The notes under the pieces: generated by a model
What the model was told of the DNA's origin: nothing
The model's database searches: none
What the model saw: the letters and a program-made list of their open reading frames with translations, nothing else
DNA from: Escherichia phage EC.W2-6
Sequence record: PP445229.1
Strand: one strand, 5' to 3'
DNA length: 64,000 nucleotides
Shown here: piece by piece, positions 35,081 to 55,908 of the stretch
Position numbering within the stretch: the stretch's first letter is position 1
Layout: each line of letters starts with the position of its first letter
Program-made: the position numbers and the translations under genes

Positions 35081-35081
35081 G

Positions 35082-39111: not shown

Positions 39112-39120
39112 AATTCCTCC

Positions 39121-39924
39121 TTAGCTAATACGTCTCCAAATGTGAGCTGCTCTGAATGGTGGCAAAGTGTTAATAGGTTGACGAGAGATATCATCACGAC
39201 CAAGACTTACACTACCAGAGATTGTATGAGTGTGAGTATCATTATCAGTTCTCTGACTGTATCCACCACCCGGACTATACCAGTTTGGCGAGCTGTTATG
39301 ACCACTAGCATCTCCACGACCAAATACCATGTTGTGACTGTGAGTATTACTGGATAGAGAGAAGCTGGAGCCATTAACTGTCATCAAAGGTACGTTCTCA
39401 GTTCGAATAGTATTGAAGACACGACCACCAGTACCACCTGCTTGGAACTCAACTCTCTGAGCATTAGGGACAGAACCATCAGGGTTTACTACACCAGTAC
39501 CCATGATAACACCAGTCACTTTAGCCCAAGAGCCAAACCCTAAGGAGATGGAATCACCGGGGTTAATATCTTCTTCAGTGATGTAGTAAGAACCAATTCG
39601 ATAGAGCTTATTCTCCATCCAGTTCTTCATGAACGCTTCCATCTGGCCTTTAGTAACAACATCCTTGTCACCAGTTCCCGGAGTAACGTTCTTGATCATA
39701 AGACCACCAACATCCATTGAATCACCAGTAAACTTGAGCTTCTCTGACATAATCTTAAAGGTGTCAGAATCTATATCAACTGGTTCTGTAACATTGGGGA
39801 ATGTGTTCTGTAACGTTTGTTTAATGAGGCGGATTTGAGCCGCCCCTTCGTAGATGTAATCCCTGTCTCTAGGATAGAGCGGGTTTAAGTCGGTAATAAC
39901 TACCGCATTAGTTTCGATAGCCAA
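39121..39924 (-). CDS. tail fibre / receptor-binding-like protein (267 aa)
   Basis: Position between large tail gene and endolysin; Gly-rich beta composition. Confidence 0.35.
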   Translation of the reverse strand: MAIETNAVVITDLNPLYPRDRDYIYEGAAQIRLIKQTLQNTFPNVTEPVDIDSDTFKIMSEKLKFTGDSMDVGGLMIKNVTPGTGDKDVVTKGQMEAFMKNWMENKLYRIGSYYITEEDINPGDSISLGFGSWAKVTGVIMGTGVVNPDGSVPNAQRVEFQAGGTGGRVFNTIRTENVPLMTVNGSSFSLSSNTHSHNMVFGRGDASGHNSSPNWYSPGGGYSQRTDNDTHTHTISGSVSLGRDDISRQPINTLPPFRAAHIWRRIS

Positions 39925-39936
39925 AAGGCACCTCCA

Positions 39937-40428
39937 TTAATATTTACCTTCGGTGTAAAGATTAGCTTCTGCAACTCTTCTATTATGAAGACCCTGACTT
40001 CTCTGCTTCTCTCCCTTGACCGTTATTTTATCCCAACGAAGAAATTCGGAATAAACATCCCCCTTAACATCTCCATTGATTACCTTCCTTAACTTAGATG
40101 TGCTCAAAGCCCCACTGCCAACATTGAAGTTGAAAGAAGTGAGTGCATCAAACTCATGAACTAGTAAAGGAACCTTTATGTTCTTCTGAGTAGCACGAAC
40201 AGAGTCTTGTGTGTCTCTATCTAGCAGAGCTAGACAATCCTCTATAGAATACGTTAATCCTTGTCTAACCGGATAACCATTCATATCGCGCGTAGCCCCT
40301 ACACATATAGTCCAGATACCTGCGGAATCTTTATAAGCCTTGGTTCTCATACCCTCATGCTTCATGATGAATTCCATTCCAGCTGGGCTTAAGTTTAATT
40401 GTACAGGTGGCAATGCGGCGTTATCCAT
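39937..40428 (-). CDS. endolysin, T4-lysozyme-like (GH24)
   Basis: FIMKHEGMRTKAYKDSAGIWTICVGAT matches the catalytic E ... D ... T region of phage lysozymes. Confidence 0.8.
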   Translation of the reverse strand: MDNAALPPVQLNLSPAGMEFIMKHEGMRTKAYKDSAGIWTICVGATRDMNGYPVRQGLTYSIEDCLALLDRDTQDSVRATQKNIKVPLLVHEFDALTSFNFNVGSGALSTSKLRKVINGDVKGDVYSEFLRWDKITVKGEKQRSQGLHNRRVAEANLYTEGKY

Positions 40429-40457
40429 TTCTAACCTCCTTTTGTAGTCCCTTTAAA

Positions 40458-40676
40458 TTAAGGTAGTATCTTTCTCAGAGCGTTAGATTCAGCATCAGGG
40501 CAAATAACAACTAAGTTATTTTGAATTGTTCTCTGCTTGCATTGAGAGCTAAGCTTCTCTACTGGAGCAGGGACAGTTACTAATGGATGAACTGCGCCTA
40601 CAGGAACTGCGGTGGATACCACAACACCTGCGCCTAAACATATTAAACCATATGCAGCTTGTTTCATCATTTTCAT
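40458..40676 (-). CDS. small secreted protein (72 aa)
   Basis: N-terminal signal-peptide-like hydrophobic segment; two Cys in mature part. Confidence 0.4.
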   Translation of the reverse strand: MKMMKQAAYGLICLGAGVVVSTAVPVGAVHPLVTVPAPVEKLSSQCKQRTIQNNLVVICPDAESNALRKILP

Positions 40677-40742
40677 TTGAGTGTCTCCTATATATTAACC
40701 TCTTGGGATATAGTAGTTTCATTACTTATTCACCAGTTTTAC

Positions 40743-40766
40743 TCCTAAAAGCCCCCGAAGGGGCTT
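40743..40766 (-). terminator. rho-independent terminator (minus strand)
   Basis: GCCCC-CGAA-GGGGC hairpin with T-run in minus-strand sense, after the tail fibre gene. Confidence 0.5.
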
Positions 40767-40769
40767 ATC

Positions 40770-42938
40770 TCACTTCTCTGCTAACTTCGCTTCTAGAACT
40801 TCAATACGCTTCAGCAGATCTTGAACAACCTGCATGGTATCTAAAAGCATTGGAGTTGCATCCAACTCTTTCTGTTCCTGCTCTACCCCATCGTTGTCAT
40901 GGAATTTACGAGTTTTAACATAAAGAGGTTCAACTTTCTCTGCCTGCTGTGCAATGATACCACGACGAGTTCTTCCTTGATTATCATTGTTGTACACAAA
41001 CGATTTGAAATCCAAACCTTTTATCGCACGAATTGCTTCATCAGGAGAGATATCTTGGATGTTATGTTTCAACTTTTCATCAGATACAGGATTCATAGCA
41101 AGAGTATAAGTTCCGGTTGAACTTGGCTGCCAAGTGTAGTAGTAAATCTCGTTCCTGTTTGGTCGGAGAGTTAAACGACAACCATATTTGTTGTCTTCAT
41201 CTCCCGAAACATGCCAACAGGAATCAGCAAAAGATCCAGCATCATTGTGAATCATCCCTACATGGGTAGTAGTTTTGTATCCACCTTGGGATGCTTGGGA
41301 AGCACTCAGTATAGAGTTAAAAGAGTAGTTAGCACCAACCCCTTGGTTGTCTATAGAAAACGTCCCTCTGCGACTTCCTGTTTCACTCCAAGACATCAAT
41401 GTTCTAGACCGAGCAACATATCTATCAGAGTTCAGGGTTCCAGAATCGTCAAAAGCTAATTGCTTGGTAACTCCTTTGGTTTTATTATAAACATTGATAA
41501 TCCCATAATAAGCTCCGTCGATATAAGCATCAGTTTGGAGCGTAGTAGAGGCTTCTACTTCTGAACCTATTTTATATTCAGAAACAACTGAACCGCTAGT
41601 TACCCTAGTTCCACCAGCAGGACGGTTTGCATCACTGTTAATAACTGACCAAGAGGTGTTAGCAGCAGTAAAACCTCCATGAGCACGAATAGTCCAAACA
41701 CCTACAAAGTTACGGGTCAGAATCTCCTCAGTGGAGCGACCATAAATAGGACTGGAACGCGATGCGTCAAAGTTTGTGGATATGTATTTACCTCCAGCCC
41801 CCACTGGAGCCACATCGTCTGTAGAGGTGATTGATTGAATTGCCCCGTTAGTCGCCACCTGCCCCGGAGCGGAGGCTAGTGTTACCATTGTGTGAGGGGA
41901 CGCATATGTGATATTCGGTGCAGCAGAATCAAACACTTGGCCATTTGCAGCAGAATTACCACCATCACCACGGCCATATAAAGCTCTCAGTGACCCCTCT
42001 TGGATACCATTTCGGTCAGGAACACGGAAAGTTGTTGTACCATTTCCGGTAGAATACCTACCCCTCTGATAGATATTAGACAACCAAAGAGAGTCTTCAA
42101 TTGGGGATAGCAGTTGTGCATAAGCCCATAAATCTGGGTAGTCAGCACGATTCAAAAGCTGCCCATCCGACACAACCTCAAAAGCTGGGATGAAAGCTCG
42201 ACTGTCACGTAAATGGAAATCACCAATACCAAAGTTAGAGATACCGCTCATCGTAGGACCACCAGAGCCACCACCACTGTTTCGAAGCTGTCTCAAAGTA
42301 ACCGCATCATAATCACCAACTGCATCAGGGACAGTTACTGGTTGAGTGAAAGTAACTTTCTGTGTGAGCTGTTTGATATCAGAGTTAATCCCTGTACGAG
42401 TAACACCTACCGTACGACCTTTAGAGTCTTTAACATAAGAACCAATTGCAGCAAAAGGCAAATCCTCAATCTCAGGACGGTAACGTTTAGAATAAACTGG
42501 ATACTTAGTTTCTACCCCAGAGTCATTCTGGTCAACAACCTGAAGACGACCAGCAGAATGAATCTCTACACCTTGAACTGAAGAGGCATAACTACCAATC
42601 TTGATTGAGTTATCAGTAGTAACTTTCATCATATCAACTGATTCTACACCATTAGCTCCAGTAGAACGGAATGGGGTATCATTAACAACCCAAGGGTCTT
42701 CTCGGAACAGCGCACCAGACATAATAGGTTGAATCGAATCCAGCACAAAATCTTTAGATGCACCCTCTGTTTTAGTTTGATAGGTAGCAGCTGCGTCGGT
42801 TTTCTGTAAATATTTTCCGGTGAGGTTAATAGCTCCAGTCTGTCCATCTACAGTAGAAACCCCAACAACAGCCGCGTCTCTGGTTACAACCACATGAGGC
42901 ATCATTATACCAGATTTGGGCATTAATTCTCTAGACAT
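40770..42938 (-). CDS. tail fibre / tail spike with C-terminal intramolecular chaperone (peptidase S74-like) domain
   Basis: C-terminal SDEKLKHNIQDISPDEAIRAIKGLDFKSF ... GIIAQQAE matches the self-cleaving chaperone domain of endosialidase/L-shaped tail fibres as I recall it. Confidence 0.6.
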   Translation of the reverse strand: MSRELMPKSGIMMPHVVVTRDAAVVGVSTVDGQTGAINLTGKYLQKTDAAATYQTKTEGASKDFVLDSIQPIMSGALFREDPWVVNDTPFRSTGANGVESVDMMKVTTDNSIKIGSYASSVQGVEIHSAGRLQVVDQNDSGVETKYPVYSKRYRPEIEDLPFAAIGSYVKDSKGRTVGVTRTGINSDIKQLTQKVTFTQPVTVPDAVGDYDAVTLRQLRNSGGGSGGPTMSGISNFGIGDFHLRDSRAFIPAFEVVSDGQLLNRADYPDLWAYAQLLSPIEDSLWLSNIYQRGRYSTGNGTTTFRVPDRNGIQEGSLRALYGRGDGGNSAANGQVFDSAAPNITYASPHTMVTLASAPGQVATNGAIQSITSTDDVAPVGAGGKYISTNFDASRSSPIYGRSTEEILTRNFVGVWTIRAHGGFTAANTSWSVINSDANRPAGGTRVTSGSVVSEYKIGSEVEASTTLQTDAYIDGAYYGIINVYNKTKGVTKQLAFDDSGTLNSDRYVARSRTLMSWSETGSRRGTFSIDNQGVGANYSFNSILSASQASQGGYKTTTHVGMIHNDAGSFADSCWHVSGDEDNKYGCRLTLRPNRNEIYYYTWQPSSTGTYTLAMNPVSDEKLKHNIQDISPDEAIRAIKGLDFKSFVYNNDNQGRTRRGIIAQQAEKVEPLYVKTRKFHDNDGVEQEQKELDATPMLLDTMQVVQDLLKRIEVLEAKLAEK

Positions 42939-42978
42939 TTAAATCTCCTTAAAGCCCCCCGAAGGGAGCATTGTTAAA

Positions 42979-45537
42979 TTACTCAGAAGGCATTTCAACA
43001 CGAACTGAAATAAAAGCATCACTCGGGATATCAATAGGATCACCGTCAGAAAAACCTTCTATCTCATTTCTAGAAAAAACCGGAGAGGTTGGATGGGTTC
43101 TGTGATAGGTTTTAACTAAAATAGAACCATCTTCTTTAATCTCATAGTCCAGCCAAACCCTAGGTTGTTTGTTGCGGTCAGTAGGGATTTCAAAGCCGCC
43201 GTCAATGCCTCCCCATTTTGCATCTGCGTTTAAGCCAAGGCAACCGGTAATCAAGTACTCACCAACACCTTGCCGAATGACATTAACCCCCTCAGATTCC
43301 TCGTTCGTCTCATATCGACCGTCGGAGTAAATATGAACTACCGGAGATGCCGCTTTGATAAATCCGTTTACATCAACAGTGGTGTTTTTGTTTGTAAGAC
43401 AATGGACATATTTTATTGTTCCGTCTGCAATCTTTATTGCGTAAGATATGCGACCGTATTGTGAGGCTTCGCCACCAGACCCTGCATATGACACACCGTG
43501 GGCAATCCAGAAGTTAGTATCCTCTGGCTGCATATACCAGTAGCAGTTAAACAAGTCTAAAGTAAACAGGCCGTTCCCGGAGGCATGTTGGACACGATCC
43601 CCAGTACCACCTACGCCTGAATTTGCTGGGGTGTTACTTAGCGCTCCAATATTGAACCTTGCACCAGCAGCATCTCCAGCCCCTGTCCCACCATTAGCAA
43701 TAGGTACATTATCCAGAGTAGAAACACTTCCCAACCCTAGATTAGAACGAGCACTAGCAGCATTTTTAGCTCCAGTGCCTCCTCTTTCAACACCTAGAGC
43801 CAAATCGCCAACTCTTCCAGGCGAGGTACTGTAACATCCCCACCCATTATTATCCACAAAGAGGTAGGTTTCTTTGTTAGGAGATAGTAATCTACTCTCC
43901 CCAGAGGCTTGATCAACTCTATCTATAGATAAATTGGAACGAGCAGCATCAACAGTAGTTGCCCCTGTACCACCATTAGCTATAGGAATTGTGTTGAGTG
44001 TAGCTATGGAGCTTAGACCTAGATTAGAACGAGCACTAGCAGCGTCTTTAGCTCCAGTGCCTCCTTGTGTGACAGACAGTGCTGTAGTGAGTCCCGTGAG
44101 GGATGTTATATCAGAGTTTGTACCAGAAGCGGCAGCACCTAAAATTGATCTGGAGATGTTCACATTACCAGTAATCTCATCAGGAGCTTGGTTATTTACA
44201 GTAACAACATAAGGTTTCTGAGCCTGTACAGACCCATTGTACTGAGAGTCTTTATCAGAATCTGGTGCTCTTATTGCCTCCCCTCCAGTCCAATCAGGAA
44301 GTCGAATGTTGATAAAATTAGTAGAATCTGCATCGGTAATACCATCTGCCAATTTACCCCAAGAGAAGTATTGTTTAGCCCCTGCTTGCCATTCAGTTTC
44401 AGAAACAACAGGAAGTTGTCCACTGACAAGGGATGGGCCTAAATCTGAAGCAGACTCTTTAGACACTAGACGACCATCGGCTGGAAGAACGCCCGGATAG
44501 GAGATATTCTTTGTTGGGTCATAAGGGAACATTACCATCTCACCAAGATATAGAGAAGGGTTTCCTGTTGGAATGGTAATGTCAATATTACCACTGGAGT
44601 CTGGAGAACGGGAATTAACAGTAAGAATTCTACCTTCAGTTTTAACAGGAGTTAATGTTTTGTTAGCAGCAACAGTATAAAATTCATACTTAGTAGCTTC
44701 CCAAACTAAGACCTTCTCACCAACTTGGCGATACTGAGCGTCAGCATCAGCTTCTGCTTTAGATTGATATGTCTTGGTGGTTTTATCAAACTTGTCATTA
44801 ATCTCTTGACGACTGTACTGAGCAACGTTCAGAACATTTCCTAAACCTACCGTCTCTTTGTTAAGCGTTAGAGCAACCTCTCCATCAAGAGCTGGACCGC
44901 CGTTAATAGAGACAGAACGGACAGATGGGATTAAGTTAGCAATGTTATCTAGAGTAGTTTTGTGGACGGTGTTGTCATCTTTGTCAACATAGAAACCTAA
45001 ATCACCTAGCTCTGGAACACCTGTAGGTGCTGTATCCAAATCCTTAACAGAACCATCTTTTCCGGGATCACCTTCTGGAATACCTAAAGAGATTACACCA
45101 GTGTTAGGATTAAAAGAGCCAGTAGCTGGAGTTCCCGGAGGGAGAGTTGTTACATCAACAGACATTCCTAACAGAACATCAAGCTGATTCTGGACTTCAA
45201 TAAGTTTTTGGTTAATGAGAGCAACGGCATTATTAGCATCCGATACTGCTGCGTTGGTTTGGGCAATCAGAGTCATCAAACGAGCATCTTGATCCTTAAA
45301 ATCCTGCTTAAGATCTTCAATATCCTGCTTCATCAGAACACCCTGTTGATATAGACGCTCTACTTCAGCGATTAAATCATCAATTGTACCAAACTTAGAT
45401 TCTGCTAGCAGTGCCCAATATTTGGAGTCAGCTGCATATTCTGCTGCTTGCTTGTAAGCTCCGATAGAGCCTTCAGTAGCACCAAACTGCCCAACGTTAT
45501 TCACTGCATCAGGTGCTTGGTTATTATAAACGATCAT
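42979..45537 (-). CDS. tail fibre protein with internal repeats
   Basis: N-terminal coiled coil; two copies of a ~45-aa unit (GGTGAKxAASARSNLGL ... PIANGGTGA). Confidence 0.55.
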   Translation of the reverse strand: MIVYNNQAPDAVNNVGQFGATEGSIGAYKQAAEYAADSKYWALLAESKFGTIDDLIAEVERLYQQGVLMKQDIEDLKQDFKDQDARLMTLIAQTNAAVSDANNAVALINQKLIEVQNQLDVLLGMSVDVTTLPPGTPATGSFNPNTGVISLGIPEGDPGKDGSVKDLDTAPTGVPELGDLGFYVDKDDNTVHKTTLDNIANLIPSVRSVSINGGPALDGEVALTLNKETVGLGNVLNVAQYSRQEINDKFDKTTKTYQSKAEADADAQYRQVGEKVLVWEATKYEFYTVAANKTLTPVKTEGRILTVNSRSPDSSGNIDITIPTGNPSLYLGEMVMFPYDPTKNISYPGVLPADGRLVSKESASDLGPSLVSGQLPVVSETEWQAGAKQYFSWGKLADGITDADSTNFINIRLPDWTGGEAIRAPDSDKDSQYNGSVQAQKPYVVTVNNQAPDEITGNVNISRSILGAAASGTNSDITSLTGLTTALSVTQGGTGAKDAASARSNLGLSSIATLNTIPIANGGTGATTVDAARSNLSIDRVDQASGESRLLSPNKETYLFVDNNGWGCYSTSPGRVGDLALGVERGGTGAKNAASARSNLGLGSVSTLDNVPIANGGTGAGDAAGARFNIGALSNTPANSGVGGTGDRVQHASGNGLFTLDLFNCYWYMQPEDTNFWIAHGVSYAGSGGEASQYGRISYAIKIADGTIKYVHCLTNKNTTVDVNGFIKAASPVVHIYSDGRYETNEESEGVNVIRQGVGEYLITGCLGLNADAKWGGIDGGFEIPTDRNKQPRVWLDYEIKEDGSILVKTYHRTHPTSPVFSRNEIEGFSDGDPIDIPSDAFISVRVEMPSE

Positions 45538-45546
45538 ATTATCTCC

Positions 45547-46299
45547 TTATACACGAGAAGTACGAATACCATAAATATCAGGCAAGCTGCTCTGAAGCCG
45601 AGTCATGTTATTCGGAATTGCGATAGGTGAACCTGAGTACTCTTGTTTCTTATTCTGCTCTACCATTTCATCAAGGATAGCTTTTCCTAATGCTGACCAT
45701 TTCTGAACACCGTTATCATCTTGAACAAAGAGACAAGCATGACGTAGGGTGAAGTACAGAAGAAGTTCTGGTGCGATAGTAAGAATAGCACTGGTATCTG
45801 TATCTTCGTGGAATTCCGGTGGGTCTGCATAATAGCTAAGAATCACTGAGTTTTCTGCTGGAATTAAAGGGCTTCCATCATCAGGATAAACAGGAGTATC
45901 TGCTTCAATACTAGGGTAGAAAATGAAACGACTCCCGAAACGAGCAAAGTTAACAGGTTGGTTATTCCAGTGAGATGGATTAATTGTTCCATGCTGTCTA
46001 CGATAGCTAATCTCCTCAGGAGAGGTTACTTGGAAGATTGTACCATCTTTGGCTCTCATCATCCATTGAGCTTCTAAGTAATCAGGAGGAATATAAGCTA
46101 CTCCATCTTTGATATCTAAATACACTTCTTTTTCCAGAGGAGGAATACGTAAGTTACGATAAATCTCTTTCTCTGCAAAGTTAATAAAGTTTGGAATTTG
46201 ATTAACAAATTCATCGTCGTCCCTATCTGCCCAGAGGGCCACGGCCTTCTTTAGCCACCCATAGGTATTGATGGGGTATTGAACATCTGGCATTGCCAT
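45547..46299 (-). CDS. hypothetical virion protein (250 aa), possible head-tail adaptor
   Basis: First gene after the capsid terminator; TAATGTATA element about 34 nt upstream of its start. Confidence 0.35.
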   Translation of the reverse strand: MAMPDVQYPINTYGWLKKAVALWADRDDDEFVNQIPNFINFAEKEIYRNLRIPPLEKEVYLDIKDGVAYIPPDYLEAQWMMRAKDGTIFQVTSPEEISYRRQHGTINPSHWNNQPVNFARFGSRFIFYPSIEADTPVYPDDGSPLIPAENSVILSYYADPPEFHEDTDTSAILTIAPELLLYFTLRHACLFVQDDNGVQKWSALGKAILDEMVEQNKKQEYSGSPIAIPNNMTRLQSSLPDIYGIRTSRV

Positions 46300-46332
46300 A
46301 GGTTGTCCTCCTTGTTATATGTAGACAAAGAA

Positions 46333-46341
46333 TATACATTA
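46333..46341 (-). promoter_or_regulatory. TAATGTATA element on minus strand (candidate phage-sigma-dependent late promoter)
   Basis: Exact 9-mer about 34 nt upstream of the 46299 start, just after the capsid terminator. Confidence 0.45.
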
Positions 46342-46361
46342 CACACTAGCTTGTATAGGTC

Positions 46362-46392
46362 TTAAAACGAAAAAACCCCGCCCGAAGGCAGG
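46362..46392 (-). terminator. rho-independent terminator after the capsid/Ig-like ORF (minus strand)
   Basis: CCCTGCC-TTCG-GGCGGGG hairpin followed by TTTTTTCG in minus-strand sense. Confidence 0.6.
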
Positions 46393-46400
46393 GTCTGATT

Positions 46401-46913
46401 TTAAGCAGGTGTTACACCAGTAAAAGTGCATGTTGCATTGATGGACGGGTCAGCTGTCAAACTTGCTTGAACAGTAACTTCGCCACTTGCAGCAGCATCT
46501 AAGGTTAACGCACCAGCGGCGCTTACTGTACCGGCTTCTGTAGGAGTTACAACAAACGTGTAATCCGCAGCAGCAGAGTTAGTTACAGTAAACATGGTAG
46601 TGAAATTAGTGGAAGAACCACCAGTTTTACCCGTAATTGGACCCTTAGCTACAATAGTAGGAGCAGGAGCAACAATTTCAGAAATGGTTGCTGTACCAGA
46701 AACACCTTCTAAAGTTGCAGTAATGGATACATCAGTGGATTGAGACGCACTCGGAGCAGTATACAAACCAGACTGAGTGATAGAACCACCTCCTGTCACT
46801 GACCAAGTAAAGCCAGTTGTTTCGGTAGAACCATCACTTTTCTCCGCGCTTGCAGTGAACTGCCGAGTAGCCCCTGTCTCTAGACTTGCTAAAGACGCAG
46901 GGCTAACAGTCAC
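46401..46913 (-). CDS. Ig-like domain ORF, probable -1 frameshift extension of the major capsid protein
   Basis: Open in the -1 frame relative to the capsid gene from a GGGAAAG heptamer 4 codons before the capsid stop; Thr/Ser/Gly-rich Ig-like composition; hairpin terminator just downstream. Confidence 0.55.
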   Translation of the reverse strand: MTVSPASLASLETGATRQFTASAEKSDGSTETTGFTWSVTGGGSITQSGLYTAPSASQSTDVSITATLEGVSGTATISEIVAPAPTIVAKGPITGKTGGSSTNFTTMFTVTNSAAADYTFVVTPTEAGTVSAAGALTLDAAASGEVTVQASLTADPSINATCTFTGVTPA

Positions 46914-46924
46914 ACTGTCTACTG

Positions 46925-47983
46925 TTACGCCGCCACCTTTCCCGCAGCAGTGAACAGAACGCCGGAAGCATACGGGTTGCGGTGACGCAGACCAACTTCC
47001 ATTTCAATCATCCACTTCTCGTAAGAACCGTCTTTAGCCAGTTCAGTACGTTTCGGAGCACGCAGAACCATCTGAGTCCAGTCAGCGCTACGGAAGAAGT
47101 AAACTGCATCGGTAGGCATCCAACGGTTAACGATGATTTTGTAGCTCTGGCCCAGCGGGTCAGTGATGCTGTTAACTTCGTAGATGAACTGCTTGGTGTT
47201 CTCAAAGATACGCTTACGTGAACCCTGAGTATTTTCTTGCAGACCAGCAAAGATCTTAGCATGAGCCGGGTTAATCATGATGATATCTGCTTCAGAACCA
47301 GCGGTATACAGTTGCAGAGTCATATCAAAGATATCAGCTTCGTCGAAACCAATGTTAGTGGTCGGGTTAGAAGCATTCTGTGCAACTTTAACAGTTACTG
47401 CACCAGTGTCCGGGTCAGCAGGACCATTCTTGGTCTTGTCAACAACGCCACCAGCCAGACCACCGTGAGCACACAGGAACTGGAATGCACCAGTCTTACG
47501 AGCTGCATGGGTGTCATTCAGACCAACAACAGCAGGATCAGTTGCAGAGTTAGTCAGATACTGGTCAGCCAGAACGTCGGTACGAGCCTGACCGGACAGA
47601 AGGATTTTCTCGAGGTCACGCTTGATCTCTTTACCTTTCTTCTCCAGCTGATACATCAGTTCACGACCACGACCGTAGTTAGCGGTGGTGTTAGCAGTAT
47701 CAGAAACACGAACAACCTTACGCAGAATCTGAGTAACGTTAGATTTGATAACAGTCGGTTTCATTTCACCGTCTTCAGCACGAGAGCCTTCGACGTGTGC
47801 GTTATTACCGTCAACGCTTGCCAGTGCATCGGTCTGCCAGCTAAAGATAGTCTGGTTGATAGACTCTTTACCGGTCATAGATACGAACGGGGTATCCTGA
47901 GGGGACAGAACAGAAATCCAGTTAGCAAAAGAAAGTTTTTTACCATTCTGGTCATACGATACAAATAAAGTTGGATTAGCCAT
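46925..47983 (-). CDS. major capsid protein
   Basis: 352 aa, directly downstream of scaffold gene and upstream of the strongest late terminator. Confidence 0.7.
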   Translation of the reverse strand: MANPTLFVSYDQNGKKLSFANWISVLSPQDTPFVSMTGKESINQTIFSWQTDALASVDGNNAHVEGSRAEDGEMKPTVIKSNVTQILRKVVRVSDTANTTANYGRGRELMYQLEKKGKEIKRDLEKILLSGQARTDVLADQYLTNSATDPAVVGLNDTHAARKTGAFQFLCAHGGLAGGVVDKTKNGPADPDTGAVTVKVAQNASNPTTNIGFDEADIFDMTLQLYTAGSEADIIMINPAHAKIFAGLQENTQGSRKRIFENTKQFIYEVNSITDPLGQSYKIIVNRWMPTDAVYFFRSADWTQMVLRAPKRTELAKDGSYEKWMIEMEVGLRHRNPYASGVLFTAAGKVAA

Positions 47984-48024
47984 GTTATGTTAGCTCCTAT
48001 ACTATTAATAATTTAATTTGTCGA

Positions 48025-49101
48025 TTAATCTACGAGGAATTTGAATGCGTCTTCGTGACTAACGCGACCCTCTGCGAATGCCTTGGCAACCTTAGCGTTG
48101 TCGGGCTTATTGGAAGTGCGAGACTTTGCAGCATCAGACTTCACAACCTTGCGTGGAGCACCGGGACGTTTAATCTTAGCCATCACCTGTTGCTTACCTT
48201 TATCAAATTGGTATGCTTTGTGGAGAGCTAGGAAAATAGACGGACGGTTTTCCTTCAATACTTCTTCTTCAGTAGCACCTAAGTCAATTGCGTATTGCAT
48301 TAAGTTTTGATATAAGTTTTCATCCCAATTTGGAATCTCACGTTTCAGAATATTAACACATTCAATACTCTTGGCTTGGAAAGCTTCCTGCTCTTTAGCT
48401 GCTGCTTCCTGCTTAATACGGACCTGAGCCTGTTCAAGCTGTTGACGGCGAGCTGTGTACTTCTCTAGGAAACGTTTGTTTTCAACATATGCTTGAGGAT
48501 CTTCTACTGCAAGCTTGTCCCAATCAAAACCGTTATAATCTTCAATTACTCGGTCTGCTTCTAAAGACGCTAGTTCTAATACATCCTTCAAACCTACTAC
48601 ACGTTCCTCGAATGCTTCCATATGACGCTGAAGAGTTGATTCTCGTTCTGTCATATCAGCACCAGTAAGATAGCCATTAGAAAGTTCTTCAATAGTCATC
48701 TCACGTCCATCAGGAAGGGTGATAACGGTTTCGTAGTCTACATCAAAGACTTCACCTTCACCGTCAGCAGAATCATCTTCATACTCTGCATCGCTTGAAT
48801 CTTCTTCCTCTTGTTCTTCTGCTTCAGAGGATTCGTCTTCATCTTCTTCGACTTCGCCTTCCTCTTCACGATCTTCCCAACCATCTTCATCTTCGAACTT
48901 AAGCTCATCGCTTTCACCGAGAAGGTCGGTATCAAAGTCGAAATCGTCACCGTCTTTTTCCGGGAACTCATCGTCAATGTCCACTTCTGGTTCTTGTTCA
49001 GATTCTAATCGACCGAGTTCTTCTTTGAAAGAACCTTTCAGGTCATCCAGTTGGAGGAAAGATTTAAAATCGTTCGGGTCAATATAATTATCTTGTGGCA
49101 T
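48025..49101 (-). CDS. scaffolding protein
   Basis: Extremely acidic N-terminal third followed by coiled-coil-like helical region; between portal and capsid genes. Confidence 0.55.
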   Translation of the reverse strand: MPQDNYIDPNDFKSFLQLDDLKGSFKEELGRLESEQEPEVDIDDEFPEKDGDDFDFDTDLLGESDELKFEDEDGWEDREEEGEVEEDEDESSEAEEQEEEDSSDAEYEDDSADGEGEVFDVDYETVITLPDGREMTIEELSNGYLTGADMTERESTLQRHMEAFEERVVGLKDVLELASLEADRVIEDYNGFDWDKLAVEDPQAYVENKRFLEKYTARRQQLEQAQVRIKQEAAAKEQEAFQAKSIECVNILKREIPNWDENLYQNLMQYAIDLGATEEEVLKENRPSIFLALHKAYQFDKGKQQVMAKIKRPGAPRKVVKSDAAKSRTSNKPDNAKVAKAFAEGRVSHEDAFKFLVD

Positions 49102-49337
49102 TATGAAACATCTCCTGCACTATTGATAGCAGCTTTTATGACCTCTTTTAAGCTACCAACCATTTTATACTTTTGATAACAATCTTCGCGTTTCTTATTC
49201 TCATGAGGTTCTGTTTGAACTATCTCTGTCATGAGTCTTTCTTTCAATGCCTCTAATGCTGCGTCAAGACTGCCGTTAAGGTTGAGAGCCGCCAAAGCGG
49301 CGGCGTGCTCTTTATTAAATTGATGTCTAATGTTCAT
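49101..49337 (-). CDS. hypothetical protein (78 aa)
   Basis: Small helical ORF between portal and scaffold. Confidence 0.4.
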   Translation of the reverse strand: MNIRHQFNKEHAAALAALNLNGSLDAALEALKERLMTEIVQTEPHENKKREDCYQKYKMVGSLKEVIKAAINSAGDVS

Positions 49338-49346
49338 TCGACGTCC

Positions 49347-51590
49347 TTAGTTTTTACTTCCAAGACGTTTGCCTGGAATCCGTGAATCTTTGAGAGAAGC
49401 TTGTTGCTCTTTCTTAGTTACATTAGCTTCTTTCTTTTGGAGTTCCAAAGTTTTATCCTGAACACGAGCTTGCTGAACAATCTTCTCTTGGTCTACCTGA
49501 TGCTCCATAACCATCTGCAATTCTTTCAGTACAGACTCATACTGACGGACCTGCTGTTGCATAAGAGCTAACTTGTGCTTAGCTTGTTCCAGAGTAGCAT
49601 TGTTATCCTCTTTACGGTTTTCCAGAGTCATAGCATCTGCTGCATTTTCTTGCTTGAACTGCAACTCTTCCTGACGCAGACTTAATTCATCCGCAGCTTT
49701 CTGCTGTTCGAATGTAGTACGTTCACGTTGGTCGAATGCATCAGCAATCATCTTCTGAGAAGAAGCCTGTACGTTCTCAACCTGTGCTTTAGTCATCTCG
49801 AGTTGGAGGATTTCCATTGGAGACGGCTCAGGAGGCTGATACTGTTCCAGAGGCAGTAAGTATTTATGAGTGTCCTTAATACCCATCAACTCAAAGATCT
49901 GTGCAGTCATGTAACGGTCTTGCTCCAAACCGAAGAGAGGTGCTAACTGTGCATCTGCTGCAATCAGCTGTTTCAAGCTAATCAGTTTCTGTGCACGTTC
50001 TGCTTTCTCATTAGGAGAGATAGCTACAACAACTTGAAGATTGTGACGAGCTGGCAATTGTTTCGGATTTACCTGAACCATACCACGAGGGGTTTGTACC
50101 TCAATAGGAACTTCACCATTTTCTCTGATAAGGCTGTAAATACCACGCATCAATTCAACCATACCATTGTGAGCAATGTTACGACATACCATACGGAGAC
50201 GGTTCTGTGCAGCATTCATCATCAAGCCTACAGTTGCATAAGCGTTATCATTCTTAAACACATCAGGGTTGATACCCATGCCTAGTTTGGTTACACCTGT
50301 ACGTGTCTCTTTAAGCTCCTCAGACATGCCTAGGAGGCCGTCAATACCTTGAGGTAGGTTATGGTATGGGAACAGGTCAATAGCGTCCTGACGTTCCATT
50401 TCAACCACTCCACCGGGACGGTTATCAAGCAGAGAGCGACGGTCGTATGCACCAACAAGAGCTTTGTATCGACCATAGTTAGCATTGTTGACGTTATCAA
50501 TATAACCACGAACTAACGCGGTACGTAAATCTTGAATATCTTTCGTAATGTCATAGACCGATTGACCATAGAAGGAACCCGGAATCGGATATGGGCAGAA
50601 GGTTACAAACGGAATGTGAGTTACTTCTTCAGTGTGAAGGATATGCTCACCAGCTTGGATAACCTGATAGAGTTTAGACTCTTTATTCTTATCTAGAACA
50701 CCAGTACGAATGTAGTGCTCGTAAACCCAAACCATAGAAGCGATATCTTCGGTATCTGTACCAATATCAGCATCAATATCTTGACGCCAGTCAGTACGAG
50801 ACCAAGCAACTGTAGATTGAGTAGTATCCATCGTGTCTGTCCAGTCGTTGAATGCTTCAATCTCATCTTTAGGGAAGCCCATAGCAACCAGATCTTCTTT
50901 AGAACGACGTACACGATGACAGAAGTATTGTGCATCTGCAAAAGAGGTAGCATGTTCATCAACAAAGATTTGCTCTGAAGGAACATATTCAACTTTCACA
51001 CGTTTAACAGTTTGTTCGTAAGTAACTTTAACATCGACTGTACCGTCTTCATTTTCTTCAGTGAAGACTTCCAGATTCTTGAGTCCACCAGCTTCTAATC
51101 CCTGAACATATGCAGCCAATGCTTCCGGTGGTACACCTTCAGCTTCTTCAGTTTGAGTAGAAGTTTGTTCATCCCAATAATACTTGATAAAAGAGTTACG
51201 AGTAACTAGACATTCTTGTGCAGCAGAAGAGATAATATTGTATCCCGGATTATCACGCAGAAGAATTTGGTTAACTAATTTAGTTGCTACATCAGCAGCA
51301 TCAGAATCCTGTTGGTTGTCAGCTACGAAAGTAACTGCTTCATCACCAGAACAGAATACGTTAATAATATCTTGCAATGTACCGTTAACAGATTCCCAAA
51401 CAGTACGATCTACCCAACTAGAGCTGCCAGCAGTTACTGGTGCAGGTAAGTTACCATAGAAATATTCCCAAGCTTCACGAGCATAGCCCTTAACAGCCAT
51501 GTCCACGTAACCTTGAGCGTAATTAAAACGACGTTGAAGGTCAACACGTAACTCGTCCAACACCTCTTCACTATATTTTTGCTTAGCCAT
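49347..51590 (-). CDS. portal protein
   Basis: 747 aa, immediately downstream of the large terminase gene; long C-terminal coiled coil. Confidence 0.65.
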   Translation of the reverse strand: MAKQKYSEEVLDELRVDLQRRFNYAQGYVDMAVKGYAREAWEYFYGNLPAPVTAGSSSWVDRTVWESVNGTLQDIINVFCSGDEAVTFVADNQQDSDAADVATKLVNQILLRDNPGYNIISSAAQECLVTRNSFIKYYWDEQTSTQTEEAEGVPPEALAAYVQGLEAGGLKNLEVFTEENEDGTVDVKVTYEQTVKRVKVEYVPSEQIFVDEHATSFADAQYFCHRVRRSKEDLVAMGFPKDEIEAFNDWTDTMDTTQSTVAWSRTDWRQDIDADIGTDTEDIASMVWVYEHYIRTGVLDKNKESKLYQVIQAGEHILHTEEVTHIPFVTFCPYPIPGSFYGQSVYDITKDIQDLRTALVRGYIDNVNNANYGRYKALVGAYDRRSLLDNRPGGVVEMERQDAIDLFPYHNLPQGIDGLLGMSEELKETRTGVTKLGMGINPDVFKNDNAYATVGLMMNAAQNRLRMVCRNIAHNGMVELMRGIYSLIRENGEVPIEVQTPRGMVQVNPKQLPARHNLQVVVAISPNEKAERAQKLISLKQLIAADAQLAPLFGLEQDRYMTAQIFELMGIKDTHKYLLPLEQYQPPEPSPMEILQLEMTKAQVENVQASSQKMIADAFDQRERTTFEQQKAADELSLRQEELQFKQENAADAMTLENRKEDNNATLEQAKHKLALMQQQVRQYESVLKELQMVMEHQVDQEKIVQQARVQDKTLELQKKEANVTKKEQQASLKDSRIPGKRLGSKN

Positions 51591-51617
51591 CTATTCTCTC
51601 CCTCGGTTGATAGCTTA

Positions 51618-51646
51618 AATAAAAGAAGGGAGGACAAACCTCCCCC
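51618..51646 (-). terminator. rho-independent terminator after large terminase (minus strand)
   Basis: GGGAGG-(loop)-CCTCCC hairpin followed by TTCTTTTATTT in minus-strand sense. Confidence 0.5.
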
Positions 51647-51651
51647 TTACT

Positions 51652-53193
51652 TTAGTAACTCTGATTCCATCTGCTTACGTTTGCCTCATACAGAGAAGCA
51701 CTTCCGTAGCTAACGTCATGCTTAGAGCGACCACGATGTGTAACAGAGCACGCTGAATAGCGCATTGCATCCATTAAGTCATCATGTTCTTTAATAATCT
51801 TACCAACCTTACGGTGATATCTAGCTTTCTCTTCGAATAGCTTAGCATTAGCGGCTGTGTTAAAGATTTTAAAGCGTCCACTCATCATTCTTTCTCGGAT
51901 ATCTGTGATTCCCGGTTCTACAAAGAAGTTCTTTTTACCATCCATTCCAATTTTGTTGTAGAAGGTCTCACTCTGTACGTTAACTCCTGCATTCTTATAG
52001 AATTGAGCAACAGATGAGCCACTACCTTTCTCAATATTGTCCGCATCGTGCGGTAGGATGACAGGAATCCACTGACCACGACCATTAATAGCTGGAGCAT
52101 GATACACTGGAGTAAAGCCACCTTCTTTATATGAGTCGTAAACATAGATAGTATCCGTGTTTGCATCGTAAGCTGTCCAAACAGCAGCAGTTGGGTGATC
52201 AATACCAATATCAATTGCACAGACACGTTTCCACGTATCAGGAATTTCGAATGGTTCACATTTAATTGTGTCATCCGATACATCATAAATCAAACCACTT
52301 CCTAACAATGGCATACCTTTCGAACGCATCTCTAACTGCCACGCTGGAATACCTTCAGTCATATCTTTTATATCTTGGTCAGTGATATGTCCACCTAGGT
52401 CTGCATGAGCATCCCACCAAGAAGCGTTCTGGAAATATAGAGAACCTGTGTTCTCATCCCCTTCGCCTTTCATAAATTTATCTACCAGTTCAGTTAAACC
52501 GTTCTCTGGTGTAGCTGTAATTGTAACTAGACCTTTAGTTGTGAGTGTACGTGTGACGCACTGTGCGAATATAGCCATAGACTCGTATGGATCTTCTTCG
52601 TCTAACCAAATGTAGTCAACTGTTGCACCCATCAATGTGTGTTCACCCTGTTGGGTTGAACGGAATTCTAATGTACTTAAACCGTCAAACTCCCCTCTCT
52701 CATTTTGATGTTTGATTTGTACGATTTGAAGTTTGTTACCATCTCGTTCTATCGTGTCAATGACGATAGCATCACGAGGAATGACACCTGTCCCCAATAA
52801 GTTTGTATCCTTTCCGATAGGTGTACCAAACAATTCCTTTTGCAATACTTTCCTTGTGGAATCCCCTGTAATACCAACTGCCCATGCTAAGATAGGTCTT
52901 TTAAATTTATATCCTGTCCACCAAGTTGGGTAGCGACCTGTGACATGACAAGCAAACTCGTATGCCTCGCTATAAGATTTACCAACACGGTTCGCTGCAC
53001 ACAAGAATCTAAAGCGATGCTTCAATCCTGCTGCATAAAATTTCTTTTGGAAGTCATACGCCTTGAAAGACAAAATCTTATTATACTTCCTCCATTGGTC
53101 ACGCTCTTTCAACATATTCAATAGTGCTTTCTTTTCCTCTACACTAAGATTGTTACCAGTTAGAGCTTCATAAATTTGTTTATCTAATGACAT
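51652..53193 (-). CDS. terminase large subunit
   Basis: Walker A AANRVGKS, Walker B YIWLDEE, C-terminal nuclease-like acidic motifs (AIDIGIDHP, DAMRY). Confidence 0.85.
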   Translation of the reverse strand: MSLDKQIYEALTGNNLSVEEKKALLNMLKERDQWRKYNKILSFKAYDFQKKFYAAGLKHRFRFLCAANRVGKSYSEAYEFACHVTGRYPTWWTGYKFKRPILAWAVGITGDSTRKVLQKELFGTPIGKDTNLLGTGVIPRDAIVIDTIERDGNKLQIVQIKHQNERGEFDGLSTLEFRSTQQGEHTLMGATVDYIWLDEEDPYESMAIFAQCVTRTLTTKGLVTITATPENGLTELVDKFMKGEGDENTGSLYFQNASWWDAHADLGGHITDQDIKDMTEGIPAWQLEMRSKGMPLLGSGLIYDVSDDTIKCEPFEIPDTWKRVCAIDIGIDHPTAAVWTAYDANTDTIYVYDSYKEGGFTPVYHAPAINGRGQWIPVILPHDADNIEKGSGSSVAQFYKNAGVNVQSETFYNKIGMDGKKNFFVEPGITDIRERMMSGRFKIFNTAANAKLFEEKARYHRKVGKIIKEHDDLMDAMRYSACSVTHRGRSKHDVSYGSASLYEANVSRWNQSY

Positions 53194-53204
53194 ACTTCCT
53201 CCAG

Positions 53205-53245
53205 TTTAAAAATAGAAAAGGGAAAGTCCCTTCGTCAAAGAACCT
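53205..53245 (-). terminator. possible attenuator hairpin between small and large terminase genes
   Basis: AAGGGA ... TCCCTT hairpin with T-run in minus-strand sense in the 70-nt gap. Confidence 0.3.
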
Positions 53246-53262
53246 CCCCTTCTTTCCTTTAC

Positions 53263-53736
53263 TTAACTCTCGTCCGCTTCCTCCCCCTTTTCAGCGTCCT
53301 CAGAGTTGTCTTCTTCTGGAGGCATAACGTCGATACCAAGTGCTCCAGTCAAGAAGTCCTTGATTTGTGCATTCAATGATTCTTCGTTGATTACATTCTC
53401 TTCCTCAATCTTAACTTCAACAGAGGCCGCCTTAGGATATACCAGATCTGCAACTTTTGATGCAGCCTTGAATCTAAGATCAGGTGGAATATTAGGATCT
53501 TCGTAAATTTGAATTAACACTTCATCAGGAGACAAATGACTTGCAGCAACACGGTCCAACATTAATTGTGTCAGTTTACCTCTACTACCTCTGGGTCGTC
53601 CGAATTTATTTCCCTTTTGAAACTTCCCATTGCTTGGGTTCATACCACGGCCTTCAAGTTCTTCCGTTACTCCGGGTAATCTTCCTGTAATCTCAGCTAC
53701 CTGTGCAGGCGTGAGTTCTCCGTTTTCTCCAAACAT
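53263..53736 (-). CDS. putative terminase small subunit
   Basis: N-terminal helix-turn-helix-like LTPAQVAEITG, basic GNKFGRPRGS segment, acidic C-terminus; directly upstream of large terminase. Confidence 0.5.
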   Translation of the reverse strand: MFGENGELTPAQVAEITGRLPGVTEELEGRGMNPSNGKFQKGNKFGRPRGSRGKLTQLMLDRVAASHLSPDEVLIQIYEDPNIPPDLRFKAASKVADLVYPKAASVEVKIEEENVINEESLNAQIKDFLTGALGIDVMPPEEDNSEDAEKGEEADES

Positions 53737-53792
53737 TTTATACTCCTTCTACATTATCAACAACACAAAAAGCCTCCCAACGGAGGCAAATA

Positions 53793-54425
53793 TTACTTAC
53801 AATCACCAACGGACAGGTTAAACATCTTACCTAGAGCAATCGTCTCACCTTCCCACGGAAGTTCTGCACCCTTCTCTTCCTCTAAAAGAATAGAGCCGTC
53901 GACCAAAAATTTTTCGTAGTCTCGCAGTGCGTCGTCTACTAGCTCACTCTTGTGAATCCATGTAATTGTTTCTGTACCATCCTCTTCGATTCTAACATCA
54001 CGATGCCATTCATCTTTGGAGGTAATATAATCATGGAGCATTTCGTATTCAGCTTCTTCAATCATCTCAATCATTGCACGAGCATAGTCAGGGAGGTGAT
54101 CATGTTTAGTAGATTCGTATTCAACTACTTCCAGAGTAGAAGGCTTAGCCCGTGCAACTTCTTCAAGTACTTTTGAGCGATCTTTGTAGTAGTTCTCATA
54201 TTTATCACCAATAGTACCGACTTGAAGTCCACGGTATTGTTCTACTAAACTCATCATATCTTTCTTCTCCGTAATAGTTGGTTTAAGAATACTTCCACTA
54301 TATAAATCTTGTACAGCCAATCCTGAAACATTTCCCATAGTTTCTAAATGCTGTAAGCTACAACCAGATCGACATAGCTGTGAATTGTAATCGTTAAGGT
54401 CCATCGCTTGGATTAAATTATTCAT
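53793..54425 (-). CDS. hypothetical protein (210 aa)
   Basis: Start at internal ATG overlapping upstream gene stop by 8 nt. Confidence 0.4.
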   Translation of the reverse strand: MNNLIQAMDLNDYNSQLCRSGCSLQHLETMGNVSGLAVQDLYSGSILKPTITEKKDMMSLVEQYRGLQVGTIGDKYENYYKDRSKVLEEVARAKPSTLEVVEYESTKHDHLPDYARAMIEMIEEAEYEMLHDYITSKDEWHRDVRIEEDGTETITWIHKSELVDDALRDYEKFLVDGSILLEEEKGAELPWEGETIALGKMFNLSVGDCK

Positions 54426-54672
54426 TTGTATCTCCCTTGCTGTAATCTTTGTATGTTTCTTTTCTGTAAGTGCGGAATGCTCTGAAGAAGAGCCAACCAA
54501 AACTACTTACATCAATTGTAATATCGAAATCTGTTTCATCATCTAAATCAACAAGACGGCCTAAGCAAGTAGCTTCCATCCCTTCTTCAGAGTCACTGTT
54601 GACCACGAAAGCGTATGTCTCCGTTCTGAACCGAGGCACCATCTCTGATAAAAAGTCTAGTACTAAATTCAT
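54421..54672 (-). CDS. hypothetical acidic protein (84 aa)
   Basis: First minus-strand ORF after the large non-coding junction. Confidence 0.4.
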
Positions 54673-55866: not shown

Positions 55867-55908
55867 CGATTGTAATTTGTAGTTTTCATCAACCATAAGG
55901 AATATCAA

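Follow-up and report, generated by a model that had tools for sequence, protein, structure and literature searches.

A −1 frameshift at the end of the major capsid gene of a phiEco32-like coliphage and its predicted fusion product with tandem Ig-like domains

The major capsid protein (MCP) gene of Escherichia phage EC.W2-6 very probably gives rise, by a −1 frameshift at the heptamer G_GGA_AAG, to a minor second product in which the MCP is fused to two immunoglobulin (Ig)-like domains. The window analyzed here is a 64,000-nucleotide stretch of DNA from this phage (record PP445229.1), and all features described below lie on its minus strand. The source phage is a phiEco32-like (Kuravirus) coliphage, and the capsid–Ig frameshift at GGGAAAG is real but not new, having previously been published for phages of this type. 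A minor fusion made by programmed −1 frameshifting, as proposed in a preliminary description of the DNA, is supported by the papers on SU10, YF01, and Privateer and by the RefSeq record of Paul, as well as by the comparative tests reported below.

The DNA of the locus is 100% identical to that of Escherichia phages EC.W8-1 and SkaterBoy_Bas90 and 98.8% identical to that of phiEco32. The gene order (scaffold, MCP, −1 Ig-like ORF, adaptor) is the same in phiEco32, SU10, and Paul, and the features of a Kuravirus-type locus are all present, with Pfam matches to SU10_MCP and SU10_adaptor and an Ig-like ORF in the −1 frame. For SU10, slippage at GGGAAAG was described as joining CDS9 to the Ig-like CDS10, “as in phage phiEco32,” and mass spectrometry revealed two MCP forms of 38.5 and 55.4 kDa (PMC4281155); the masses computed for the two products of the present gene are 38.66 and 55.62 kDa. 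The frameshift has also been described for the whole phage group in the YF01 paper (PMC9965538), the longer capsid protein of Privateer was found in virions by LC-MS/MS (PMC7881722), and the RefSeq record of Paul contains a joined CDS with the note “Frameshift at GGGAAAG; Frameshift in PhiEco32....” The two-form capsid result for phiEco32 itself reaches us second-hand, through the SU10 paper (PMC4281155), the Privateer paper (PMC7881722), and the RefSeq record of Paul. The gp11 and gp12 proteins of phiEco32 (“major head protein” and “bacterial Ig-like domain”) represent the same locus, with the same heptamer position and the same 180-codon extension. The product sizes agree as well, and the site shows no substantive difference in SU10, Paul, or YF01; the extensions of Paul (547 codons) and YF01 (892 aa in total) are longer because the second module is repeated. 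The top database match to the predicted fusion is the 892-aa YF01 fusion, at 99% coverage.

The MCP gene (46925..47983, 0 frame) encodes a 352-aa, 38.7-kDa protein with an HK97 fold that belongs to the SU10_MCP family (Pfam PF17236, E = 9e-77), and its residues 1 to 350 are near-identical to the solved SU10 MCP chain 7z45_A. The gene ends with GCG GGA AAG GTG GCG GCG TAA. The expectation of an in-phase X_XXY_YYZ heptamer near the capsid stop was thus borne out: G_GGA_AAG occupies 46943..46937, with GGA as codon 348 and AAG as codon 349, and only three sense codons separate it from the 0-frame stop TAA (46925..46927). This heptamer has been listed as highly shift-prone in E. coli (PMC5009743), and the GGA that it contains is the sole GGA among the 26 Gly codons of the MCP gene. 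Note that the number of GGGAAAG occurrences in the whole window (8, vs 7.4 ± 2.6 expected) is at chance level and is therefore uninformative. An in-phase X_XXY_YYZ sequence within the last 15 codons occurs in 4 of the 67 window ORFs of at least 100 aa (about 6%), and only in the MCP gene is it coupled to a long −1 extension, which spans 180 codons compared with 8 to 36 for the other three. The significance of the site rests on its conservation, its codon usage, and the domain boundary, and three attributes of a canonical −1 site (heptamer phase, an open and coding −1 frame, and conservation among relatives) are found here. Transcriptional slippage was considered and ruled out because the A-run is just three bases long. 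No phage-encoded tRNAs able to modulate slippage were found in the window.

The −1 frame had been given as GGG AAA GGT GGC GGC GTA ACA GTA GAC AGT GTG ACT..., which matches the DNA exactly and remains open for 180 codons. Its first new codon, GGT, re-uses G46937, and the extension (46401..46936) comprises 178 residues (GGGVTVDS...TPA) before the TAA at 46403..46401. The predicted fusion, MCP residues 1 to 349 followed by these 178 residues, would be 527 aa long with a mass of 55.6 kDa. The annotated 170-aa ORF, which begins with the GTG at 46913, lies within this frame; the ten open codons between the heptamer and this GTG are unremarkable by chance. Only the −1 frame encodes the tryptic peptide GGGVTVDSVTVSPASLASLETGATR, with a monoisotopic mass of 2331.19 Da, in part through codons 5′ of the GTG. 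No promoter-like site was found on the minus strand between the MCP and Ig ORFs, an intrinsic terminator (46373..46396) lies directly 3′ of the extension stop, and the MCP gene and its extension form one transcription unit.

The Ig-like nature of the extension, which the preliminary description had treated as a single domain, was confirmed, but the structural model and fold matches point to two tandem domains. The first (46683..46922; extension residues 8–87) belongs to the Big_2 family, with residues 8 to 85 passing the Pfam threshold for PF02368 marginally (24.8 bits vs a gathering cut-off of 22.8). An AlphaFold model of the extension, built with a 24-sequence alignment, is all-beta with two domains and a pLDDT of 96.1, whereas a single-sequence run gave a pLDDT of 54 and is uninformative. 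Among PDB entries, Leptospira LigA, with its tandem Big domains, gives the best fold match (E = 5e-11). The second domain (46410..46658; extension residues 96–178) is assigned from the model and the tandem Ig fold matches; it has no Pfam match above threshold and is Ig-like by fold alone. Its module is repeated in the longer extensions of Paul and YF01, the repeats being visible in Paul. The Ig fold begins 5′ of the GTG, since the Big_2 match starts at residue 8 and beta-strand A is formed by residues 8 to 14 (VDSVTVS), while the GTG corresponds to residue 11.

Each of the 18 other Kuravirus loci examined has the unchanged heptamer in the correct phase, although flanking codons vary, and 17 of them have a −1 frame that stays open over 180 to 547 codons. 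Three of the four Kuravirus lineages (NJ01-like (L004), Paul, and KBNP1711, the last with GTA) have GTA or ATA in place of the GTG annotated as a start; in these lineages the first start-type codon of the −1 frame is codon 36 or 49 and lacks a Shine-Dalgarno (SD) sequence. Within the 30 codons 3′ of the MCP stop, 15 to 16 of the 24 to 26 differences fall at third codon positions. The ratio of synonymous to non-synonymous changes over the same codons is 12:6–7 in the extension frame for Paul-type comparisons and 10:9 for L004, and it is 3:14–15 and 1:15–16 in the other two frames. This third-position bias indicates purifying selection on the −1 frame, and the comparison shows that the part of this frame lying 5′ of every start codon is itself selected as protein-coding sequence.

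These data bear directly on whether the Ig-like ORF might instead be a separate gene whose product, translated from the GTG at 46911..46913, would be a free decoration protein of 170 aa (16.6 kDa) attached to the capsid non-covalently. Such a GTG does exist 11 nt 3′ of the MCP stop, a separate CDS is annotated in the EC.W8-1 and phiEco32 records, and the SU10 cryo-EM paper discusses whether gp10 might be a minor capsid protein that was lost in purification. However, the GTG has no SD sequence, and its anti-SD duplex energy (−1.7 kcal/mol) equals the random-position median, compared with −6.5 to −11.4 kcal/mol for neighboring genes. The codon is missing in three of the four lineages, whose first start-type codons lie 36 to 49 codons in, within the Ig domain, and coding selection acts on the codons 5′ of those starts as well. 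Moreover, the fold starts upstream of the GTG, which is located within beta-strand A and takes part in the base pair that opens a conserved hairpin, and gene callers choose inconsistent starts that yield proteins of 110 to 254 aa. We consider a separate gene very unlikely, and the GTG is unlikely to serve as a main site of initiation. That the Ig ORF is translated independently from this codon, named at the outset as the outcome that would overturn the frameshift proposal, is contradicted by the lack of an SD sequence and by the absence of the GTG in most relatives.

Termination at the MCP stop followed by reinitiation is just as improbable. On this route, ribosomes that end at the TAA would move along 11 nt and, with no SD sequence to guide them, begin again at GTG 46913, making a free Ig protein besides or instead of the fusion. 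Short stop-to-start spacing is compatible with translational coupling in bacteria, and the 11-nt gap fits this route. Nevertheless, reinitiation is impossible in the lineages that lack the GTG, which keep both the heptamer and the upstream codons, and it leaves unexplained the unique GGA codon, the in-frame fusions found in relatives, and the 55.4-kDa MCP form of SU10.

SU10 presents a further consideration. A 1-nt insertion in the SU10 record truncates the −1 frame after 13 codons, and the cryo-EM study of this phage saw neither an extended isoform nor additional density on the capsid. Because of the insertion, SU10 is best viewed as a special case and not as a counter-example. Least plausible of all is a heptamer that arose by accident next to an Ig ORF that is an unexpressed or dispensable, decaying remnant: SU10 is viable with its truncated frame and a capsid that shows no extension, and about 6% of window ORFs carry a terminal in-phase X_XXY_YYZ by chance, but the long open −1 frame in 17 of the 18 other Kuravirus loci, the purifying selection indicated by third-position-biased substitutions, the confident two-domain model, and the recurrence of the same architecture with other slip sites and Ig families at 49 to 66% MCP identity all argue against it.

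The frameshift at G_GGA_AAG can be pictured as follows. Most ribosomes on the late MCP mRNA would end at the TAA (46927..46925) and release the 352-aa subunit. A minority would slip back by 1 nt with tRNA-Gly on GGA and tRNA-Lys on AAG, the two tRNAs re-pairing with GGG and AAA, and reading would resume with GGT GGC GGC GTA... in the −1 frame. The resulting 527-aa product would consist of MCP residues 1 to 349, a Gly-rich linker, and the two tandem bacterial Ig-like domains. Because it carries the full MCP body, the fusion would be expected to co-assemble into the prolate head as a minor subunit with its Ig domains facing outward.

Potential hairpins had been noted 3′ of the heptamer, and this observation holds for a conserved hairpin at a distance but not for a stimulator at the canonical spacing. 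No hairpin at 5 to 9 nt exceeds shuffled sequences (z = +0.39 for a 66-nt fold around the site), and no SD-like element is seen 5′ of the heptamer in the sequence. The extension does contain a 59-nt hairpin (46855..46913), whose 5′ end lies 23 nt beyond the heptamer and which sequesters the GTG. The RNAalifold consensus of nine Kuravirus sequences includes this hairpin, with three pairs showing compensatory changes; its cells are paired at 98.4% compared with at most 53% in slid controls, and a 97-nt fold that contains it gives z = −2.05. Acting from unusually far away, the hairpin could set the ratio of frameshifting, or it could block internal initiation. A stimulator is not obligatory, as lambda G-T, which uses the same heptamer, is not known to rely on a strong structure. 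The stem-loop proposed in the SU10 paper (CUGCUGC...GYGGCGG) is present but is no more stable than shuffles, and we rejected it because it encloses the heptamer and the ribosome decoding the site would melt the stem. An Rfam scan of 46300..47100 (E ≤ 1) detected no frameshift element, and two sub-threshold sRNA matches were located at the terminator.

The arrangement invites comparison with two classical systems. Phage lambda uses the identical heptamer, G_GGA_AAG, for G/G-T, where the slip site likewise lies near the end of the upstream ORF. However, the lambda proteins are tail assembly chaperones that are unrelated to those considered here, and their product is absent from the virion. Gene 10 of T7 has a slip site of the G_GUU_UUC type. 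As in the 10A/10B proteins of T7 and T3, the shift occurs a few codons before the MCP stop and a minor, C-terminally extended subunit co-assembles. The T3 extension is also Ig-like (PMC5009743; PMC9965538), whereas that of T7 is short and not Ig-like (PMC5009743), and the MCPs are not close homologues. Frameshifting in T7 depends on a distant element in the terminator (PMC5009743), and the ratio for lambda G-T, as cited in PMC9965538, is low and fixed at about 3.5%. By analogy with lambda G-T and T7 gene 10, the efficiency is probably between a few per cent and about 10%, which would correspond to tens of copies of the fusion among roughly 715 subunits.

Linkage of an MCP to Ig-like domains in the −1 frame extends to more distant relatives at 49 to 66% MCP identity, with other slip sites and other Ig families. 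In Privateervirus, G_GGA_AAG directly abuts the TAA, Lahexavirus-like phages carry G_GTA_AAG, and a further locus (L038) carries C_CCA_AAA. Privateer, a Proteus phage of the Grimontviridae, resembles the present phage in its MCP (57% identity), its heptamer, its Ig-like −1 extension, and the minor protein in its virions, but its gene ends with GGA AAG TAA and its extension is composed of I-set and Big_2 domains instead of Big_2 and the Kuravirus module. A second MCP gene, joined in frame to Ig domains, is present in phage 7-11 and in the metagenomic loci L035 and L082 (P0062). Salmonella phage 7-11 and relatives with tandem MCP genes make the same two species, a plain MCP and one that bears Ig-like domains at its C terminus, and the fusion junction aligns with that predicted here. 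They differ in that the long form is read in frame from a duplicated MCP gene and no recoding is needed. Alignment of the predicted fusion with P0062, a natural in-frame MCP–Big_2 protein, crosses the junction unbroken.

Judging from these sequences, the SU10-type MCP family appears to swap at least four slip motifs (G_GGA_AAG, G_GUA_AAG, C_CCA_AAA, and A_AAA_AAG) with duplication and in-frame fusion. The non-canonical G_GUA_AAG cases carry no frameshift annotation in the records compared, and a literature search for GGTAAAG frameshifting gave unrelated papers only. If the interchange is true, the family would offer a natural series for the gain and loss of recoding sites. These less ordinary readings, of the conserved hairpin as a functional modulator and of the exchange of slip motifs and duplication as such a gain–loss series, strike us as rather doubtful. 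Across the wider family, recoding and gene duplication come across as interchangeable routes to a minority decorated subunit.

We infer that the Ig domains of the fusion are located on the capsid surface, where they probably adhere weakly to carbohydrates. The presence of Ig-like adhesion domains on some of the subunits would be relevant to how a therapeutic-candidate coliphage contacts surfaces and mucus, and the MCP C terminus would be of interest as a display site. There is also value for annotation, as many Kuravirus records split the locus into a capsid gene and a “hypothetical” or “Ig domain” CDS; the EC.W8-1 record PQ030848, which is 100% identical at the locus, leaves the frameshift unannotated and lists separate CDSs. 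The locus should be annotated as a major head protein in two forms, a short one and a long, joined one.

The major capsid protein (MCP) ORF of 352 amino acids occupies 47983..46925 on the minus strand, matches Pfam SU10_MCP (E = 9e-77), and encodes a protein almost identical to the major head protein of phage SU10 (PDB 7z45). Its 3′ end reads ...TTC ACT GCT GCG GGA AAG GTG GCG GCG TAA, and because of this sequence the heptamer G_GGA_AAG (46943..46937, minus strand) falls in the exact X_XXY_YYZ phase. The -1 frame from the heptamer (GGG AAA GGT GGC GGC GTA ACA GTA GAC AGT GTG ACT...) translates openly for 180 codons to a TAA at 46403..46401, and an intrinsic terminator (46396..46373, minus strand) lies directly after this stop. 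No promoter-like site was seen on the minus strand between the MCP and Ig-like ORFs. The computed masses of the short and fused products, 38.66 and 55.62 kDa, agree with the 38.5- and 55.4-kDa MCP forms published for SU10 (PMC4281155). The preliminary description of an in-phase heptamer before the capsid stop, with an open -1 frame through the Ig-like ORF, was correct in every statement about the sequence. Its reading as a -1 frameshift that fuses the capsid protein to an Ig-like domain is supported by the literature, site conservation, coding selection, and the domain boundary, and the feature conforms to a textbook-type -1 programmed frameshift.

This capsid–Ig frameshift is already known: descriptions for the genus go back to 2008–2014. 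Escherichia phages EC.W8-1 (PQ030848, at identical coordinates) and SkaterBoy_Bas90 match the window region at 100% identity, and phiEco32, type member of Kuravirus (subfamily Gordonclarkvirinae), does so at 98.8%. Slippage at GGGAAAG that joins CDS9 to the Ig-like CDS10, as in phiEco32, is set out in the SU10 paper (PMC4281155), where both MCP forms were seen by MS. The longer capsid protein of phage Privateer was found by LC-MS/MS in a paper that also notes the frameshift product as seen in phiEco32 and SU10 (PMC7881722), and the YF01 paper describes a short and a -1 extended isoform across the whole Kuravirus-like group (PMC9965538). The predicted 527-amino-acid fusion has as its top database match the 892-amino-acid YF01 “major capsid protein” (99% coverage), and a joined CDS is present in the RefSeq entry for phage Paul (with a note that places the frameshift at GGGAAAG and refers to phiEco32) and in the Privateer record. 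The EC.W8-1 record (PQ030848.1) carries two separate CDSs within 46401..47983 (minus strand), “capsid and scaffold” and “hypothetical protein”, without a frameshift. Many sister records likewise split the two ORFs with no frameshift annotated, and the ShigP1 record names both “major head protein”.

The heptamer alone is not significant, as GGGAAAG occurs eight times in the window versus 7.4 ± 2.6 expected. About 6% of window ORFs hold an in-phase X_XXY_YYZ within their last 15 codons, and the ten open codons from heptamer to annotated GTG are unremarkable by themselves. Taken together, however, the heptamer, its proximity to the stop, and the long -1 frame are informative. Among 67 ORFs of at least 100 amino acids, the MCP alone joins an in-phase heptamer near the stop to a long -1 frame, with an extension of 180 codons versus 8–36 for the other ORFs with such heptamers. 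The heptamer also contains the sole GGA among the 26 glycine codons of the MCP (21 GGT, 4 GGC, 1 GGA). Elsewhere in the window, T_TTT_TTA stands in phase at ~20565 within a small annotated gene (20518..20691, plus strand), and the -1 frame after it has 188 open codons and runs into the next annotated gene (20691..21131, plus strand); this is probably a coincidence (42 open codons needed, chance ~0.13).

Conservation was assessed in 18 other Kuravirus loci from phage, IMG/VR, and metagenome collections, whose MCPs are 93–100% identical. GCG GGA AAG is in phase in 18/18, with flanking codons that differ at synonymous and nonsynonymous positions, and a -1 frame of 180–547 codons follows in 17. 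The sole exception is the GenBank record of SU10, where one extra base, inserted 25 nt beyond the MCP stop, cuts the -1 frame off after 13 codons, a truncation also remarked on by the YF01 authors (PMC9965538). The SU10 difference (locus L014, KM044272, ~4560..4600) comprises this insertion and also a substitution, GACACTGTCTACTG against GACAGTGTGACTG. The cryo-EM structure of SU10 shows no extended subunit, probably because of this truncation; the record is consistent with the structure but at odds with the 55.4-kDa form from the 2014 proteomics. Extension lengths within Kuravirus are 180, 374, 439, and 547 codons (Paul, locus L015, 4541..6184; loci L024, L025, and L026), and the differences arise from repeats of a second module (KGPITGK..GG....F..MFT.TNS...), the one that forms the second Ig-like domain in the window.

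Independent initiation at the annotated GTG (46913), or termination–reinitiation, may provide minor extra routes to the Ig-like ORF in the window's lineage. No Shine–Dalgarno sequence was found at this GTG, where the anti-SD duplex energy of -1.7 kcal/mol equals the median of random positions, versus -6.5 to -11.4 for the MCP, scaffold, fibre, and adaptor genes. The KBNP1711-, Paul-, and NJ01-like (L004) lineages have GTA or ATA in place of the GTG; their first start-type codon in the -1 frame is codon 49 or 36, which lies within the Ig domain and likewise has no Shine–Dalgarno sequence. N-termini assigned by gene callers are inconsistent (Ig ORFs of 110 to 254 amino acids) because there is no clear independent start. 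The Pfam Big_2 match begins at extension residue 8, and an AlphaFold model of the extension (24 homologues, pLDDT 96.1) has two beta-sandwich domains at residues 8–87 and 96–178. Since strand A of this model spans residues 8–14, the GTG (residue 11) lies inside it. Among PDB folds, the closest match is Leptospira LigA with its tandem Big domains (E = 5e-11).

Coding selection was evaluated over the first 30 codons past the MCP stop by comparing the window with other lineages. Of the 24–26 differences, 15–16 are at the third position of the -1 frame. Synonymous changes outnumber nonsynonymous ones in this frame by 12 to 6–7 for Paul-type comparisons (10:9 versus L004), whereas the other two frames give 3:14–15 and 1:15–16 in the Paul-type comparisons. 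In lineages lacking the GTG, these codons are translatable only by ribosomes coming from the MCP frame. Initiation at the GTG or reinitiation leaves unexplained this selection on codons that precede any start in sister lineages, as well as the heptamer conservation, the unique GGA codon, and the 55-kDa MCP form. The idea that the Ig ORF is decaying and unexpressed is contradicted by purifying selection on the extension and by the recurrence of the same architecture in relatives. Transcriptional slippage is implausible, with an A run only three long.

As to the mechanism of the -1 frameshift, G_GGA_AAG is also the lambda G-T heptamer. The site is described as highly shift-prone in E. coli, where weak pairing of the sole tRNA-Lys with AAG is put forward as the cause (PMC5009743). 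Across the entire window (1..64000), ARAGORN detected no tRNA genes. Potential hairpins had been proposed to follow the heptamer: a conserved one does lie 23 nt downstream, but there is no stimulator structure at the usual 5–9 nt spacing (fold z = +0.39), and no Rfam frameshift element was found at the locus. The conserved hairpin (46913..46855, minus strand; 59 nt) starts from the GTG within the Ig extension. Across Kuraviruses, 98.4% of its cells are paired versus ≤53% in slid controls, and the 97-nt fold has z = -2.05. Three pairs have compensatory changes, a covariation that comes from only ~3 lineages; in one example, a synonymous Ser codon change (UCU/UCG) pairs with a nonsynonymous Glu/Gln/Pro codon change. 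A distance of 23 nt is unusual for a stimulator of frameshifting; the hairpin could modulate frameshifting, occlude the GTG, or have no role. An SU10 head has about 715 MCP copies, so tens of decorated subunits would result if a few per cent of ribosomes shifted. The frameshift efficiency, surface display, and Ig-domain function envisaged here are inferred from analogous systems (T7/T3 gene 10 and lambda G-T) and from the phage Ig literature.

More distant relatives have the same or other slip sites. Privateer and Cronobacter phage 009 (57% MCP identity) carry G_GGA_AAG immediately before TAA and a 171-codon extension with I-set plus Big_2 domains. Aeromonas phage LAh_9 (locus L020, 4412..4690) and several uncultured phages (L008–L011, L033, L034, and L039, near the MCP stop), with 57–66% MCP identity, carry the noncanonical, A_AAG-type G_GTA_AAG two codons before the stop, and their open -1 frame encodes Ig_3 or two Big_2 domains. 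These loci probably represent the same recoding at another slip site; the LAh_9 record has no frameshift annotation. Locus L038 (49% MCP identity; 4038..4685) has C_CCA_AAA, and its Ig_3 extension is 215 codons long. In the Privateer/009 and LAh_9-like relatives the domain starts a few residues from the slip site, ahead of any start codon; L038 is an exception, with its Ig_3 match from about residue 20 and the first start-type codon shortly after it, at residue 23. Locus L013 (4921..5055) has A_AAA_AAG in phase and an extension of just 44 codons without a recognisable domain. The arrangement is absent from LUZ24-like phages (25–31% MCP identity).

Other relatives have tandem MCP paralogues. 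Salmonella phage 7-11 (L017, 2482..5258), L035, and L082 (331..1803) each have one short MCP gene and one long one with in-frame Ig domains, the fused last copy being 585 amino acids in 7-11 and L035 and 490 in P0062, the L082 protein. The last copy is also longer in ECO319P1 (L019) and APT65 (L021; three plain copies, then a 428-amino-acid ORF), as judged by length. This arrangement is a gene-duplication alternative to frameshifting and fits a published account in which phage Ig domains become attached through frameshifting or in frame, roughly by chance insertion (PMC5009743). The way the SU10-type MCP family interchanges gene duplication with recoding is of modest interest, as are the distant conserved hairpin and the noncanonical G_GUA_AAG sites. 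P0062 aligns straight through the predicted junction, with ...NPFASGVLDVTPPKP-PVESVTIAPKTLA in the window fusion against ...NPYASGVLFTAAGKGGGVTVDSVTVSPASLA.
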